Virus record (IMG/VR): IMGVR_UViG_3300001525_000178
Location: 6,176 to 70,175 of that record
DNA length: 64,000 nucleotides
From: a virus
Lineage: Duplodnaviria; Caudoviricetes
Direction: 5' to 3' (one strand)
Shown here piece by piece: positions 38,168 through 63,770 of this stretch. Every line of letters begins with the position of its first letter. Positions within the stretch are counted from its first letter, which is position 1. A model generated the notes under the pieces. That model had not been told where the DNA came from. It saw only the letters and a program-made list of their open reading frames with translations, and did not search any database. The translations under genes were made by a program, and so were the position numbers.

Positions 38168-38594
38168 TTATGGTTTATTAAAGTTTGTTCCTATTCTTCT
38201 ATACATGCATAGATATACCCTTACACTTACATTAGTTACACCTCGCCCCTTAACTTTAACAAGCAACCTTCTGTTTACATCTACTTGAACAATGTATGTC
38301 ATATTGCTAGTATTCCAGTTAGTACCGTCTCGACCATTATAAAATTCTCCAACACACGTATATGCTTCACCGTCGTCTGGTAATACTAATGATAAATCTA
38401 AAGTATAAGTACTACCCTCTTTTGCAGTAGTCGTCTCAAGTAGTTTATATCTATTTTTCCCCCCCCTCCCAGCCGTATGCGTCAAAATATTTATACGTAC
38501 TTGCTGAAACATTATTGAAATCACGGTCTGCTTTATCATTTAATTGTTCTGACCAAATATTAAGGTCTGTATTTATATCTTTATCTTCTGCCAT
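38168..38594 (-). CDS. Short fibre-tip paralog, frameshifted at a G8 tract (OFF state as assembled)
   Basis: ATG 38594 MAEDKDINTDL...EGGEK-stop; removing one G at 38459-38466 joins YTLDLS.VLPDDG...YRRIGTN, homologous to the C-terminus of 39070-40977. Confidence 0.8.
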
Positions 38595-58164: not shown

Positions 58165-58905
58165 CTAATATTTATCGCCAATCAAATCTAAAATTATCAA
58201 AGCAAATTCTTTATGCTCTTTTCCACCGTTTTTGATATAATTATTTAAGAAACTACATACCCTTCTAGATTTTATTCTTGAAGATATTTTTGCTTCTTCA
58301 ATTTCATCTTTGGGTGGTTCAAGATTTAAACTTAAATAACTTTTATTTATTTCGTCCTGTGTAATTCCAATATATCTTTTTGTAACTTCTGGCGTATAAT
58401 GGTTATATATTGTTTGTAATAAGGTAATATCTTTAAACTGTCTATAATGATGATAGCCGAATGTTTTTCTCATTGTATGTGTTCCAACATTCGCTTTAAT
58501 TTCTAGCGCCTTACAGGCTGTTACAATCGCCTTATATACAACAATTCTATCAAGTGGTTTATTATCTTTTCCTTTAAATAAATATTCGTCTTCATTTCTA
58601 TCTTTACAAAAATCATTCAAAAGTTGTTGCAATGAAGTTTTTATTGGAAAAGATTTTGCTTTATTTGTTTTTATTTCACGTAAAACAATTTGCTCTTTAT
58701 TTAAAACATCTTTTACTTTAAAGTTTAACAAATCCGATATGCGTAAACCGCTGTTTACACCAAATTCAAACAAAACAGCATATTTATTTTTATTGTGTTC
58801 GTTTAAATAATCAATTATACGTCTTATATCGTTTTTATCACGTATAGGTTCGACTACTTGTGTGTTTCTTCTTTTTGACTGAACTGTTAATTTTGCTTTC
58901 TTCAT
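58165..58905 (-). CDS. Tyrosine recombinase (XerC-like catalytic domain), probable shufflon invertase
   Basis: GLRISD (R), HTMRKTFGY (HxxR), YNH, KRYIG (Y). Confidence 0.92.
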   Translation of the reverse strand: MKKAKLTVQSKRRNTQVVEPIRDKNDIRRIIDYLNEHNKNKYAVLFEFGVNSGLRISDLLNFKVKDVLNKEQIVLREIKTNKAKSFPIKTSLQQLLNDFCKDRNEDEYLFKGKDNKPLDRIVVYKAIVTACKALEIKANVGTHTMRKTFGYHHYRQFKDITLLQTIYNHYTPEVTKRYIGITQDEINKSYLSLNLEPPKDEIEEAKISSRIKSRRVCSFLNNYIKNGGKEHKEFALIILDLIGDKY

Positions 58906-58990
58906 AAATACCTTCTTTCTTTTTGTTTATGTTTTAATAAAATAAACACATAAATCAAAACGGTATTTCAAAGATATTTACAATACTAAT

Positions 58991-59238
58991 TAGCAAGTTT
59001 AATATTTCAATGGGGTTACGCAAACATACCCGCAAATAAAACCTCTATAGCCGTAAATTTACCTACAGCATTTTCCACAGTATATTCTGCAACCGCAACA
59101 CACTTGTCTAATAATAGTTCGACAAATAGTTATCACATTGTGTCTCTAGCAAGAACTAACACCGCTACCCTAACCTTGTTAGGAGTTTCAGGGAACAGTG
59201 TGAATATGGCGACTGCTTTTCTTGCAGTAGGCTACTAA
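58991..59238 (+). other. Silent fibre-tip cassette 1 with head site TAGCAAG
   Basis: ASLIFQWGYANI...LPTAF...FLAVGY*; no start codon, in-frame stop upstream. Confidence 0.85.
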
Positions 59239-59486
59239 TAGCAAAACTAATCATACAATGGAATAATAGGGCGTCAATGTCATCTACGTATGGTATATAT
59301 CAACTACCTATATCTTTTAGTAGCAACATATACTATGTAGCACCATCAGACGCGACCAATGCGGACGCCAACACAAGTGGAGCAGGTACTTTCTCTATCA
59401 TTAGAGAGAAAACTACTCTATCTGCATTTAAGGTAGTATGTAGTAATATTGCTGGTGCATTTATGTATCTGTGTATAGGCTACTAA
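59239..59486 (+). other. Silent fibre-tip cassette 2 with head site TAGCAAA
   Basis: AKLIIQWNN...LPISF...YLCIGY*. Confidence 0.85.
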
Positions 59487-59487
59487 A

Positions 59488-59759
59488 TAGCAAGTTTAAT
59501 CGTACAATGGACAAAAACATCAGTTATTACTGTAGCAAATAACGTTAGTGTGGTTGTTAAGCCTACTTTTCCAACTGCTTTCAGATATGGGAATAAATAT
59601 CGAACTTTTGCTTGCTTTACAAATGGCTCTGATAGTAACTGGGCACGTACTGGACTACTCGCACACACAAGTGGTACAGCCTCAACTGCACATATATCGT
59701 TCTATTGTCATGACTATACATCAGTAGTCTGTGCTGCCATATTTGCAATAGGCACATAG
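59488..59759 (+). other. Silent fibre-tip cassette 3 with head site TAGCAAG
   Basis: ASLIVQWTK...FPTAF...IFAIGT*. Confidence 0.85.
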
Positions 59760-60007
59760 TAGCAAATTTAATAGTTCAATGGCTGAAAAACGTTATTGTA
59801 GATAAAACCATCTATAAAGACGTTTCTTTACCACTGTCTTTTTCTTCTACTTCTTATGCATTGTTAGGTACGCATGGCACGTCCTCTACTTCTCAAGCCC
59901 CTGCGTCTTGGGTAATAGGGTTGGGGCAATTAAGTGCTAATAAAATCAGAGTTACAACAGGGAGTACAGGGACTGTTGGACAAGACATTTTTGCTATTGG
60001 TTACTAA
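59760..60007 (+). other. Silent fibre-tip cassette 4 with head site TAGCAAA
   Basis: ANLIVQWLK...LPLSF...IFAIGY*. Confidence 0.85.
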
Positions 60008-60232
60008 ATGCCAATAGTAAACCAAAAACATTCAGTATGTTCATTTTTTCTTGAGATGTATTTCTGACTGTAATGTAAAAATAGGAAAGAGTTTTGTTGT
60101 ATGTAGATATATAAAAAGAGGAGTTCTCATTTCTAAACAACGATACTTGAGGAGAATAAAATTTAGGATAGGTAACAGGGAGTGAAACCTGCGTAAAACT
60201 TGAAGATTTCCCCCATTGCAACAAACTTGCTA
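60004..60232 (-). other. Inverted fibre-tip cassette 5 with head site TAGCAAG; 1-nt frameshift in an A6 run
   Basis: ASLLQWGK...LPVTY...; adding one A at 60044-60049 restores ...ECFWFTIGI*. Confidence 0.8.
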
Positions 60233-60607
60233 GTAAAATATGTTGACTGTCTATCAATTACACCAAATATATAAACGTTCGTTGCAGTTGGTCGAACATC
60301 TGTCAAGGTAATACTATATTGTTGTGACGAGAATGGTTTTAGTAATTCTATATTTTCTGTACTAATACTCGTTGAACCTTTATCGTATAAACCACCTTGT
60401 TCACACCAACCATCAGACCAAAGACGATACCATTGTGTACCATCTTCTGATTTACCTGTTTCAACTACGGTAGTGACATTATTTAATCTTACCCCCCCCT
60501 GTGTGGGCTGGGTCGGTATTATAAGCATTTCTATCCATTTTGTCGTTTAATGCTTCTGACCAAACGTCTAAATCTGTGTTAATATTTACATATTTATCTT
60601 CTGCCAT
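60163..60607 (-). CDS. Short fibre-tip gene (gp53-like domain), frameshifted at a G8 tract, abutting the cassette array
   Basis: ATG 60607 MAEDKYVNINTDL...HTGGGKIK-stop; removing one G at 60492-60499 joins VVETG...WYRLWSDGWCEQGG. Confidence 0.8.
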
Positions 60608-60620
60608 TTATCATCGTTCC

Positions 60621-62045
60621 TTAATCTTCTTTTGTAATATCTTCAAGAAGTTTATCGCCACTTCCCTTTTCCAATTGAGATACAACGTTTACTTCACGTC
60701 TTGTAATCCAATCTTGCCATTGGTCTTCTGTAAATTCTGGTGCGTCTTTTCCTAAAATACGTTTAAGAACAACATTGCACATTTCTCTTGTATTTGGTAC
60801 AAGTCCAGATTTATCAGCAGATTGAATAAATAATAATAAGTTTGTTAAATCCAAATCACCAATTTCACTATATTTTAATGTTGGTGCAAGTTTTGGGTCA
60901 ATTAAATTCTTTTCACACAATGGGATAATCAATTTTGTATTCAATTCTGTTGCAATATCATCTAAAATTTCTTTGATAACATTGATAAAAAATTGAATTT
61001 TTGATTGTGATAACCCACCAGATGTTCCAGATTTTTGTGATACAACAAAATAATCGGACAACAATGAAACAGCCATGTTTCTGTTTTCACGTTCAATTAT
61101 TTGGTTTGCGTCTGGAATATTGCCTTGTCCAGCATTTTTAATGTCAACATCAATATATCTTGGCAATACAACTGCACCGTCTGTACCACAACGAATATTT
61201 TGTGCCATATCACGCAATTGTTGTTGAATTGCAAGACATCTTGGGTCTTGTGTGTTTGGGTCAAGAATGTAATCTTCTGTCGTAATTGTTAAAAGACCAT
61301 CAAACCCTCTTTCATATCTGATATTTTCTAATGCACTTATATCTTTTATCTTTTTAAAACTGTCAACACAGTTAGTATAAATCGAATTTCCTTCTGGGTC
61401 TTGATTATTACTTCTAAAAGTAAAATGCAATAATTTATCGTATGGAATTTCAACAAAATCAAAATTAAATGGATTTTTTTGTTCCACACTTACAATCTTT
61501 CGGTTATCATTATCATAGTTCCATTTATTGATTGAACCTTGATAGCGTGGTGCAAGTTTTGCAATACCGATTTTTCCATCGTTATATTTTGATGTTTTTT
61601 CAATATTATTTTTATGACCGTTTCTAACCTTATATACAATTTCGGCTAAAGCAAAGCCATATTGTGGGGCTGTCAAGGCGTCTTTTACTACTCTATCTAG
61701 TGGAATAGCCATATCACATAAACATTCGTCTACGAACGTCTGAACAGCCTTAGCTTCATCGCTATCATCTGCTGGTATTGTTGACCAAGATACAGTATTC
61801 GCCGTTGAAACGTACATATTGTTAAAAGCACCAACGGTAGGGTTAAATCTTACCATTTCTTCCAACATTTTAATTTTGTTTATGCCCCTAAAGTATTCTC
61901 TGGTATCTTTTTTAACCTTGCCAAAAGACATCGGTAAACCACTAATACCATATTCAGCAGTTGTTGTTCTTTTTATTTCTGCCTTTTCAACAGGATTATT
62001 TGATTTGTTCGCATTATCCCTTTTTGTTCGATTTCTTTTTGCCAT
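60621..62045 (-). CDS. Portal protein (DUF935-like)
   Basis: YGFALAEIVY, KLAPR.Q.SI..W, IPYDKLLHF, NPEG-like DPEGNSI; follows TerL. Confidence 0.88.
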   Translation of the reverse strand: MAKRNRTKRDNANKSNNPVEKAEIKRTTTAEYGISGLPMSFGKVKKDTREYFRGINKIKMLEEMVRFNPTVGAFNNMYVSTANTVSWSTIPADDSDEAKAVQTFVDECLCDMAIPLDRVVKDALTAPQYGFALAEIVYKVRNGHKNNIEKTSKYNDGKIGIAKLAPRYQGSINKWNYDNDNRKIVSVEQKNPFNFDFVEIPYDKLLHFTFRSNNQDPEGNSIYTNCVDSFKKIKDISALENIRYERGFDGLLTITTEDYILDPNTQDPRCLAIQQQLRDMAQNIRCGTDGAVVLPRYIDVDIKNAGQGNIPDANQIIERENRNMAVSLLSDYFVVSQKSGTSGGLSQSKIQFFINVIKEILDDIATELNTKLIIPLCEKNLIDPKLAPTLKYSEIGDLDLTNLLLFIQSADKSGLVPNTREMCNVVLKRILGKDAPEFTEDQWQDWITRREVNVVSQLEKGSGDKLLEDITKED

Positions 62046-62078: not shown

Positions 62079-63770
62079 CTATCTTCTATTTGATACACTA
62101 AATCCACCAAACGCACGTGTTAAGTGAAATTCAGTATCATCTTCATAACAAGCAAAGCAAATACTATCTGCCAAGTCGGTTGAATGTCCGATTTTCTTTC
62201 TGATTGTATCTTTATCCACAATCTTTATCTTCCCATTCTTATCACCATAAGTTAAAACTTGAAGTTCTTTTATTAAATCTTCATTATGTGGCAATAATAA
62301 AGGAAGTTTGCCTTTGCTTTCTTCAACTTCTGACCTACTTGGGTTCATCATTTTTCGCATATACCACCAACATTCATCACGTTTGCGGTCAAAAGTCTTT
62401 TTCTTTTCATCTGATTTTTCTTTTTTATAACCAACTTTTGCATTTGGATTTCCAGCACCAGCACCAGATTGAATGCCGTTTACTTGTAATCCACGTTGTT
62501 TTAAAAGAAGGTATTTATCATATCCTACACCATCTGTTTCAATATTGATATGGTGTACATTATATTCTGTATATTTTTGTTGAATAAAATCAAGAAGTTC
62601 GTTTAATTCAAGATTTACACGTTGGAAGAATATTATCCTATTCCCATTTCTGATTGCAATTGAAGATTTATCAGCACCTGTACCCTTCGCAATATCGACA
62701 CCCATTACGACATCACCTTTTTGCCATAAGGTTTCGTTATTGAAGTTGTACATGCTTTGTTCAATCCAATCGGTTGGAAATAAAGCATTTGAATTGTCGT
62801 TTGGAAATTCGGCAAGATAACGTGTCCTAAATTCATAACTATCAACTGACCTTCCACCTTCAACAAAACAGTTATATGCTTCAATCGGATTTGACAGGTG
62901 TGACCCAAATGTTCCAAGTGCTTTTTTTACATCTTCTTCCCATTGGGTTAAATTATCTTCTTTTTTGTATTTCCAATAATTTGTTTTGCAATATTTATCT
63001 AACTTATTTCGCCAATATAACGGGTCTTTTTCGTCACGTAAATAATCTTCAAGTTTAATATTTGGAAGCACAAAGTTTGGTGTATCAAAGCAACTTATGT
63101 GCATTGTCTTCCAAATGCTACCTTTTTGAAATGAATTATAAAATCTTCCACTATTTCCGTTCGGTAATGTTGTGTTACCAATCATAACTTCACGAATTAC
63201 TTGACCAGAAGCCGTAATCCCACGGAAATCTGAATATTTCTTATCGTCAATACCTTGTGCTTCATCATAAATCGCTAAAACAAATGAGCCGTGTTTACCA
63301 ACGTTTTTGTTTTCACCTTCTGTCGAAACACCCATTATATAGTTTTTCTTTAAATAGCGAATTTCAGCAACATTCTGATTTTCAGATATTTTTGGAAATA
63401 ACTTTAATTGGTCAGTTCCAAGTATTTTTTCTAAGTTTCTATTTGCATTATCAATAAGCGAAAGAATAGGCATGTAAATGTTTTCTTTCACCTGTGCAAA
63501 AGTAGGTGCTGTAAAAATAATAATTGTATTTAAGTTGTCATCTACTATATAACAAAAGAAAAACCAAATTGCAATGCCAGAAAAGATAAATGATTTTCCA
63601 ATTGCGTTGCAAGACCTAATTGAAGTATATCGGTTTTTTTGAACTGCTTTTATCATCTTTTTTTGATGTGGTGCAAGTTTTACGCCTAATACTTCTTTAA
63701 AAAATGCTTCTGGATTTTCTTTCCAATAAGCACGTTTAGCAAGTAGTTTTTCTAATGCCTTATCATTCAT
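62079..63770 (-). CDS. terL: Terminase large subunit
   Basis: PHQ, RSCNAIGKS (Walker A), TAPTFAQV, IYDEAQG (Walker B), nuclease GVDIAKG.GADKS, DLADS. Confidence 0.95.
   Translation of the reverse strand: MNDKALEKLLAKRAYWKENPEAFFKEVLGVKLAPHQKKMIKAVQKNRYTSIRSCNAIGKSFIFSGIAIWFFFCYIVDDNLNTIIIFTAPTFAQVKENIYMPILSLIDNANRNLEKILGTDQLKLFPKISENQNVAEIRYLKKNYIMGVSTEGENKNVGKHGSFVLAIYDEAQGIDDKKYSDFRGITASGQVIREVMIGNTTLPNGNSGRFYNSFQKGSIWKTMHISCFDTPNFVLPNIKLEDYLRDEKDPLYWRNKLDKYCKTNYWKYKKEDNLTQWEEDVKKALGTFGSHLSNPIEAYNCFVEGGRSVDSYEFRTRYLAEFPNDNSNALFPTDWIEQSMYNFNNETLWQKGDVVMGVDIAKGTGADKSSIAIRNGNRIIFFQRVNLELNELLDFIQQKYTEYNVHHINIETDGVGYDKYLLLKQRGLQVNGIQSGAGAGNPNAKVGYKKEKSDEKKKTFDRKRDECWWYMRKMMNPSRSEVEESKGKLPLLLPHNEDLIKELQVLTYGDKNGKIKIVDKDTIRKKIGHSTDLADSICFACYEDDTEFHLTRAFGGFSVSNRR

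Follow-up and report, generated by a model that had tools for sequence, protein, structure and literature searches.

We analysed a 64,000-nucleotide (nt) stretch of viral DNA (hereafter the window), corresponding to bases 6176-70175 of the 70,175-base IMG/VR virus record IMGVR_UViG_3300001525_000178, in which an intact tyrosine recombinase gene lies beside an array of five short cassettes that probably encode alternative tips of a phage fibre (Table 1). Four of the cassettes are on the plus strand and one is on the minus strand, none has a start codon at its head, and each is headed by one copy of a putative recombination site of approximately 23 bp. Five start-less cassettes beside a tyrosine recombinase had been proposed from the sequence alone (the original prediction) as an invertible library of receptor-binding tips, and this layout was confirmed by the PF00589 match of the recombinase and by the number of sites on the plus strand, four against 0.25 expected.

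Table 1. Features of the cassette locus and related genes (window positions; aa, amino acids; ORF, open reading frame; E, E-value)
Feature	Positions	Strand	Description
Terminase gene	62079-63770		First in gene-direction order
Mu-type portal gene	60621-62045		Second
Broken small-fibre gene	60607-60163		Third
Small-fibre N-terminal ORF	60479-60607	-	42 aa; severed from body by G8 run at 60492-60499
Small-fibre body	60163-60528	-	121-aa ORF; gp53/pyocin-foot-like domain; passes through site 5 in the wrong frame
Cassette array	60232-58990		Fourth
Cassette 5	60004-60232	-	Site 5 at 60232-60213; frameshifted at A6 run 60044-60049
Cassette 4	59759-60007	+	82 codons and stop; site 4 at 59760-59782; intact; Gp53-like_C E 3.1e-6
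Cassette 3	59487-59759	+	90 codons and stop; site 3 at 59488-59510; intact; no Pfam match
Cassette 2	59238-59486	+	82 codons and stop; site 2 at 59239-59261; intact; Gp53-like_C E 4.3e-7
Cassette 1	58990-59238	+	82 codons and stop; site 1 at 58991-59013; intact; Gp53-like_C E 4.8e-10
Intergenic stretch	58906-58990	none	Recombinase start to site 1; fixed left flank of array
Tyrosine recombinase gene	58905-58165	-	Fifth; 246 aa, intact; PF00589 E 2e-25, residues 23-180
ClpP-type prohead protease gene	58120-57473		Sixth; followed by scaffold and capsid genes
Second small fibre-like gene	38168-38594	-	Paralogue of the small-fibre gene; split by G8 run at 38459-38466

On the plus strand, the pattern TAGCAAR-N10-CAATGG occurs exactly at the heads of cassettes 1-4, and four or more matches were obtained in none of 100 shuffled sequences. 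The fifth site, on the minus strand, reads TAGCAAG-N7-CAATGG, and no further copy was found in the entire 70-kb record. The predicted CAATGG 9-12 nt downstream of TAGCAAR is thus present at all five sites, but with a spacing of 10 nt in four and of 7 nt in the fifth. In each site a conserved left arm (TAGCAARTTTAAT) is followed by four variable spacer nt and then by CAATGG, which forms the Gln-Trp codons of the cassette. The repeat lies in coding sequence (..A-S/K/N-L-I-x-Q-W) and reaches upstream of the cassette frame into the stop codon of the preceding cassette. As proteins the cassettes are approximately 20-30% identical, yet the DNA repeat at the sites is nearly exact, and outside the sites the cassettes have only short chance repeats in common. 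Scanning other sequences with the site pattern yielded 4 single matches in viral contigs and 25 in metagenome contigs, none of which adjoins a cassette, and these were put down to chance.

Cassettes 1, 2 and 4 each measure 246 nt from GCA to stop, as had been predicted, and cassette 3 is 24 nt longer. A shared Gp53-like C-terminal domain (PF21882, Gp53-like_C) had also been proposed, and Pfam recovered it in cassettes 1, 2 and 4 (40.3, 30.8 and 28.1 bits, each over positions 6-84 of the 84 in the profile, against a gathering cut-off of 24.9 bits), whereas cassette 5 scored 16.2 bits and falls under the cut-off. For cassette 3 the proposal is supported by structure prediction: its AlphaFold model is a five-strand sandwich (mean predicted local distance difference test (pLDDT) score 73) that aligns to the R1 pyocin fibre foot (6CL5; Z 6.2, root-mean-square deviation 3.2, 85 residues aligned) and to gp53 of AP22 (4MTM; Z 4.9), middling scores that point to a shared fold family. 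Three-frame translation indicates that cassette 5 starts as ..LLQWGKSS..LPVTYP.. and ends as ..FWFTIGI-stop in another frame, with the switch at the A6 run, and a purpose-built cassette hidden Markov model (HMM) matches it in two separate pieces, each in its own frame. The stop codons of cassettes 4 and 5 do overlap tail to tail at 60004-60007, as described, but only in this second frame of cassette 5 and not in the frame in which that cassette starts.

The recombinase matches the integrase family phrog_216 (E 2.5e-55), and shares its RxxD, HxxR, H and Y motifs with a relative. Its alignment with the XerA profile covers only positions 84-263 of 263, i.e. the catalytic part, and the N-terminal part of Xer-type profiles, which holds the core-binding domain, has no match in the protein. 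The protein also carries a basic C-terminal extension of approximately 60 aa. There are 3206 relatives at E<=1e-20; the nearest in GenBank phages (44-48% identity) are short 'integrase domain' proteins from Bacillus phi105 and from pneumococcal, Listeria and Clostridium phages.

Use of such cassettes as fibre tips is indicated by a near-identical strain. When cassette 1 was searched against longer proteins, we detected a 145-aa protein (P0272) composed of a 63-aa constant region (MSNESINNEINVG...FTWKEDNK), the residues VASLIVQWG and a tip 95% identical to cassette 1. This protein is encoded on a 1372-nt metagenome contig (L061, from JGI 3300001528), which carries the constant region, cassette 1 in frame with it, and then cassette 2 as in the window. 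Because cassette 1 is fused in frame to a constant region in this strain, cassettes of the window type serve as fibre tips. The contig and the window differ at 2 of 486 nt (99.6% identity) between window positions 59008 and 59493, a segment spanning both cassettes and the beginning of site 3, and are unrelated to the left of the site, with the switch falling inside 58991-59008. The 4-nt spacer is CGTA in L061 and ATTT in the window, and identity is restored at CAATGG, which places the homology break inside the site and, most simply, at or just before CAATGG. The same cassette with different left neighbours and a break inside the site is the signature that site-specific exchange would leave. 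A further single-base difference at position 59494, in the last bases of the contig, may be a single-nucleotide polymorphism or reflect another downstream cassette, and no conclusion was drawn from it.

The left part of L061 is 89% identical to another relative (L004, from ERR2144984), whose DNA is 91% identical to that of the window over a stretch running from portal into small fibre. The order in L004, taken as ancestral, is portal, unbroken small fibre, a 249-aa gene and the start of a second fibre gene. Two other relatives (L027 and L028, 78-83% DNA identity) have cassettes, recombinase and ClpP protease as in the window, and match its left flank with the recombinase, a short spacer and a diverging cassette.

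A wider set of loci whose recombinases are 66-81% identical to that of the window shows that it belongs to a conserved family of phage shufflons, with cassette totals ranging from 5 to 13. Three of these loci (L011, which is the same contig as L003, L012 and L013; recombinases 70-71% identical) contain a complete fibre gene of approximately 200 aa with a tip starting at a site of the ..ISNLIIQWG.. type, followed by silent cassettes. In relatives with a complete fibre gene the layout is always a block of plus-strand cassettes, a block of minus-strand cassettes and one expressed minus-strand cassette, with counts of 4+1+1, 1+4+1 and 2+2+1 and, in L017 and L018, of 6+6+1 and 6+3+1. Facing blocks are exactly what nested inversions between plus and minus sites preserve. 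A constant part in frame with a cassette is present in L061, L011, L012, L013, L017 and L018. Homologous cassettes also occur on opposite strands: the plus-strand cassette at 1869 of L013 is 72-75% identical to minus-strand cassettes at 8041 of L017 and 7931 of L018, and L012 expresses a cassette that is 69% identical to one lying silent on the plus strand of L018. A comparison of cassette order in related genomes had been put forward as a check on the original prediction, and its outcome between strains (homologous cassettes on opposite strands, differing block counts and the break within the site of L061) agrees with it, as does the conservation of the layout together with the expression of cassette 1 in L061. 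The nature of the element, a tyrosine-recombinase cassette library for fibre tips, is thus supported.

The loci L017 (6531-9971) and L018 (6443-8890) encode identical recombinase proteins, identical also to that of L016, and carry 13 and 10 Gp53-like cassettes, respectively. L018 looks like L017 minus the cassettes between two direct sites, and one cassette (H), silent in L017, is the expressed one in L018; this difference suggests a deletion between direct sites. The sites of L031, L032 and L033 are nearly identical to those of the window (TAATAGCAAAACTAATTGTACAGTGG), and these loci, from three samples, are collinear with no inversion among them. At least eight cassettes with window-type sites, all on one strand, were seen in L031 (1-1950) and L032 (1-1100); a 270-aa fibre-like gene of opposite strand is embedded in the middle of this array, and the constant gene lies beyond the contig end. 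In L010 (4319-7481) a recombinase 74% identical to that of the window lies beside a different cassette type, with a 540-aa fibre ending in ..LPNIVG...YTYYA and at least two silent plus-strand cassettes of the form LPNITG...YTYYA-stop. Because the enzyme of L010 adjoins an unrelated cassette type, the recombinase family appears to serve more than one type of tip. Four loci with related recombinases (L025, L026, L059 and L060) had no Gp53-like array visible in the DNA examined.

A gene of 238-249 aa (..GGWYRKTPKGY..; L004 2130-2879, L011 6701-7435, L010 4319-5035), was found with every intact shufflon of the family and is missing from the window; it is without a match in Pfam, PHROG or NCBIfam and may encode a fibre assembly factor. 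In L029, which comes from a sister sample of L028, a truncated and internally deleted copy of the 249-aa gene precedes the recombinase promoter and the cassettes are absent (positions 1-160, compared with L028 and L004), which looks like either a loss of the entire array or an assembly error.

By tblastn, neither the constant region nor the 249-aa gene is present anywhere in the 70-kb record, the sole match being a shared N-terminal segment of approximately 27 aa (52% identity). The gene that runs into site 5 in the window is the small-fibre gene, whose counterpart in L004 has a G9 run and is unbroken at 152 aa. The domain encoded by its body belongs to a family of 1889 relatives, nearly all listed members of which end in WxAxGY, and its model resembles pyocin fibre feet and AP22 gp53 (4MTM) with Z scores of 9.1-9.9. 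Residues 101-121, the 21 that follow the site, lack this motif, unlike the family, and are modelled with a pLDDT of 58-69. In addition, the tail scores no better with the family HMM than shuffled tails (81.7 bits against 81.4 +/- 0.7, with 88 of 300 shuffles as high or higher). Because the tail lacks WxAxGY, scores like shuffled sequence and coincides with a drop in pLDDT, the small-fibre gene reads as 3'-truncated at site 5 and fused to the shufflon. We also considered that the 121-aa ORF might be complete, its last strand being encoded in a second frame over cassette 5, as MAFFT placed FYAGF on WxAxGY and AlphaFold drew a strand there; the shuffle-like tail score, the missing motif and the low pLDDT ruled this reading out.

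The truncated gene is also in the wrong frame for the cassettes. It reads TAT-TTT-ACT-AGC-AAG through site 5, one base off the cassette frame, in which a stop lies 13 codons upstream of Gln-Trp, and no known +1 frameshift motif was found by eye at TAT-TTT-ACT-AGC. When inversions between site 5 and each of sites 1-4 were simulated, the small-fibre ORFs stopped 2-11 codons past the CAATGG of site 5, so that none of the five possible joints (the assembled one and four inversions) gives an in-frame fusion. The original prediction had cautioned that no in-frame junction with a constant region could be found; that caveat is real, and is explained by the absence of the constant region together with a truncated, out-of-frame small-fibre gene. 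Its claim of five alternative tips available to this phage is not supported, for the constant region is absent, no joint is in frame and cassette 5 has a frameshift.

The small-fibre gene has a paralogue elsewhere in the window, and both genes open with the same segment of approximately 30 aa (MAEDKDINTDLNIWSEQLNDK..) and require an identical correction of one base. Each paralogue contains one G8 run, and the 64 kb have no other run of G8 or C8. These splits could be due to slipped-strand phase variation, systematic sequencing error or programmed frameshifting.

We consider it likely that this locus is a phage-encoded multiple-inversion system (shufflon), of the type described for the Rin recombinase of Bifidobacterium prophages, which has been orphaned and is probably decaying. 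In its intact form the short tyrosine recombinase would recombine the asymmetric sites, and each start-less cassette would supply a whole Gp53-like receptor-binding tip domain to a fibre gene of approximately 145-200 aa, as in the intact relatives, whose constant N-terminal part ends in one site. Inversion between the site of the constant part and any opposite site would flip the intervening DNA, placing a new tip behind the constant part and always keeping two cassette blocks facing tail to tail. From comparison with the relatives and with known systems, the recombinase would perform these inversions, the crossover would fall at or next to CAATGG, and the tips would set host range. If the L061 state is taken as constant region, cassettes 1 and 2 and so on, facing cassette 5 and the recombinase, the window array may have arisen from it by one whole-array inversion: recombination between the expression site and the last site would place cassette 5 forward, followed by cassettes 4, 3, 2 and 1 in reversed orientation, with cassette 1 beside the recombinase. 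The present state would then have been produced by a deletion of the DNA between the small-fibre gene's 3' end and the left edge of a forward site, leaving a library with no fibre gene. As assembled, the recombinase and four cassettes are intact, yet with the constant part lost and all joints out of frame no tip appears to be expressible as a fibre by inversion.

Several observations weigh against an orphaned shufflon or complicate it. L061 is only 1.4 kb long, and its orientation relative to the portal and protease genes is inferred through L004. The left arm of site 5 (TAGCAAGTTTG-TTG) differs from that of the L061 expression site (TAGCAAGTTTAAT-CGTA); it may derive from an internal site or from a different allele of the constant region. 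Three samples of one relative (L011, L016 and L019) share an identical arrangement, so that flipping may be rare. The evidence for inversion comes from comparison between strains, and the junction of the small-fibre gene with site 5 is known from the assembly alone. Finally, four cassettes and the recombinase are still perfectly open, which is unexpected if the system has long been useless; this would call for a recent deletion or for some remaining use of the system.

The assembly itself might be at fault, in that the real phage has a fully working shufflon and the lack of a constant region reflects a chimera or a minority deletion variant from a population of mixed inversion states, the true order being portal, small fibre, 249-aa gene, fibre constant region and array. 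The intact recombinase and four cassettes would fit this, as would the full order seen in the closest relatives (L004 and L061) and a second apparent deletion variant in L029. Contigs of the relatives also often end in or at the sites (L028 and L061) or just upstream of the recombinase (L027 and L029), indicating that this region assembles poorly, and those stopping in or at the sites hint at branching of the assembly graph. A false join, however, needs a shared k-mer, and none of the other sites has a match to the small-fibre side of the junction (..CATATTTTAC). Moreover, the same region has two more defects, a gene split at G8 and the A6 frameshift of cassette 5, which real decay fits better, and we regard an artefact as unlikely. 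More improbable still is that the cassettes are fixed relics of tandem duplication, with 23-mers that are merely conserved first-strand codons and a recombinase that acts in integration or dimer resolution. The repeat does lie within coding sequence, three samples of one relative do show a single arrangement, and short recombinases 44-48% identical occur in Firmicute phages with no known shufflons. Conserved codons would not, however, account for a near-exact DNA repeat that reaches into the previous stop codon in proteins of approximately 20-30% identity, nor duplication for cassettes without start codons. What lies to the left of cassette 1 (99.6% DNA identity) differs between L061 and the window, with a break within the repeat, the same recombinase family lies beside an unrelated cassette type in L010, and the facing blocks with differing counts are a prediction of nested inversion; we give this explanation hardly any weight.

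A bolder reading, which we hold to be very improbable, takes the out-of-frame junction and the G8 tract as a working two-tier switch in which ON/OFF state is set by tract length and tip choice by inversion. Here the small-fibre gene would be the constant part, and the frame would be changed for expression by slipped-strand changes in G8, T4 or A6 tracts or by ribosomal +1 frameshifting. The equivalent position of the G8 runs in the two paralogues and their common one-base correction, in DNA of 31% G+C with no other such run, speak for this reading, as does the in-frame G9 of L004. Campylobacter phages have been reported to carry hypermutable polyG tracts (Sorensen et al. 2021, Cell Rep 35:109214, as cited in PMC10877375). 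Going by that citation, the G8/G9 runs in two paralogous fibre genes of an AT-rich phage, differing in length between relatives, resemble those tracts; here, though, they concern the adjacent small-fibre gene and not the cassette array, and the variation was seen between relatives. Against a working switch, the junction at site 5 has no long homopolymer or, by eye, known shift-prone motif, and the cassette frame is stopped 13 codons upstream of Gln-Trp. A fused tip would follow a domain that lacks its own last strand, the native partner of the cassettes is a different constant region, and cassette 5 would require three independent frame corrections.

If the orphaned state is genuine, the loss of the constant region might be a by-product of the shufflon recombinase acting on direct or pseudo-sites rather than of random decay, a suggestion that we make tentatively and consider doubtful. 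The deletion junction sits exactly at the left edge of a site, and the cassette loss apparent in L018 relative to L017 and the deletion variant L029 would point the same way. Were it true, recombinases of this arm-less kind would not be strictly bound to inversion as against deletion, and phage shufflons would trim their own arrays and cut themselves off from their fibre genes, which would answer the question of directionality raised for Rin.

The window has a G+C content of 31% and nearly all of its long ORFs are on the minus strand. Its terminase is at most 26% identical to that of any GenBank phage, so that the phage appears to belong to an uncultured lineage. Megablast found no close relative of the window among GenBank phages, and a search of viral contigs with the small-fibre and portal proteins likewise gave no close relative; neither the portal protein in metagenome contigs nor the recombinase alignment in genome contigs produced a match. 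The position of the array between the portal and protease genes is unusual.

In the shufflon of plasmid R64, the tyrosine recombinase Rci acts at asymmetric sfx sites (one conserved arm plus core), and inversions swap C-terminal segments of the pilV adhesin. The analogy to R64 in the original prediction holds at the level of mechanism, with a tyrosine recombinase, asymmetric sites and multiple inversions that swap C-terminal segments, and goes no further. R64 encodes a plasmid pilus system rather than a phage fibre, and its segments have inverted sites at either end and often contain two ORFs, whereas here there is one site per cassette and two facing blocks. Rci is also larger than the 246-aa recombinase of the window, which, as judged with Xer-type profiles, matches over the catalytic part only and has a C-terminal extension instead of the N-terminal part. 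The serine-invertase fibre switches Gin (Mu), Cin (P1) and Min (p15B) change host range and, in the summary given in PMC6109161, are phage or plasmid inversion systems that exchange tail-fibre C-termini, Min being a multiple-inversion system. They share this outcome with the window, but their enzymes are serine recombinases and the sole recombinase at the present locus is of the PF00589 tyrosine type.

The closest likeness in logic and gene order, as compared by description, is that between the intact relatives found here and the Rin shufflon of Bifidobacterium breve and longum prophages (Mavrich et al. 2018, PMC6109161). That system is phage-encoded, and its tyrosine-family invertase, which lacks an arm-binding domain, flanks small start-less genes for variable C-termini of the receptor-binding protein, each preceded by a short asymmetric repeat, with the gene for the constant N-terminus on the other side. 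The window likewise has a recombinase beside an array of multiple start-less, site-headed cassettes in both orientations, and differs in having no constant part in frame with a cassette at a site, the constant gene being kept in Rin. The Rin site is the 11-bp TTCCCTAACCC and not the approximately 23-bp TAGCAARTTTAAT-N4-CAATGG, its tip fold is like that of the TP901-1 receptor-binding protein and not Gp53-like_C, and its hosts are high-GC Actinobacteria. [quoted passage not shown] A tail-fibre shufflon has also been described in BV01-like phages of Phocaeicola vulgatus (preprint PMC13596623, 2026), where read analysis found all configurations. There too a recombinase flanks a multi-cassette invertible region over the tail-fibre gene's distal end, with directional short motifs between cassettes (PMC13596623). 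That region has three cassettes and a 10-bp TGGGAGAACT motif and introduces different stop positions; by contrast, each cassette here encodes a complete tip domain of approximately 82 aa, relatives have up to 13, and the system is known from assembled sequence alone.

The principle of a phage shufflon is unchanged by this locus, having already been described in 2018 for Rin and in 2026 for the BV01-like phages. Particular to the present case are a whole Gp53-like domain in each cassette, the large arrays of the relatives, the position between portal and protease genes and the lost expression site. The locus adds a shufflon with Gp53-like tips and a very short tyrosine recombinase drawn from a family of more than 3000 metagenomic proteins, and would provide a natural case of a tip library severed from its fibre gene, offering a view of how shufflons decay. 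As phage shufflons would provide several receptor-binding tips per virus, they may matter for host range in the gut and in other communities and for the design of phage cocktails.

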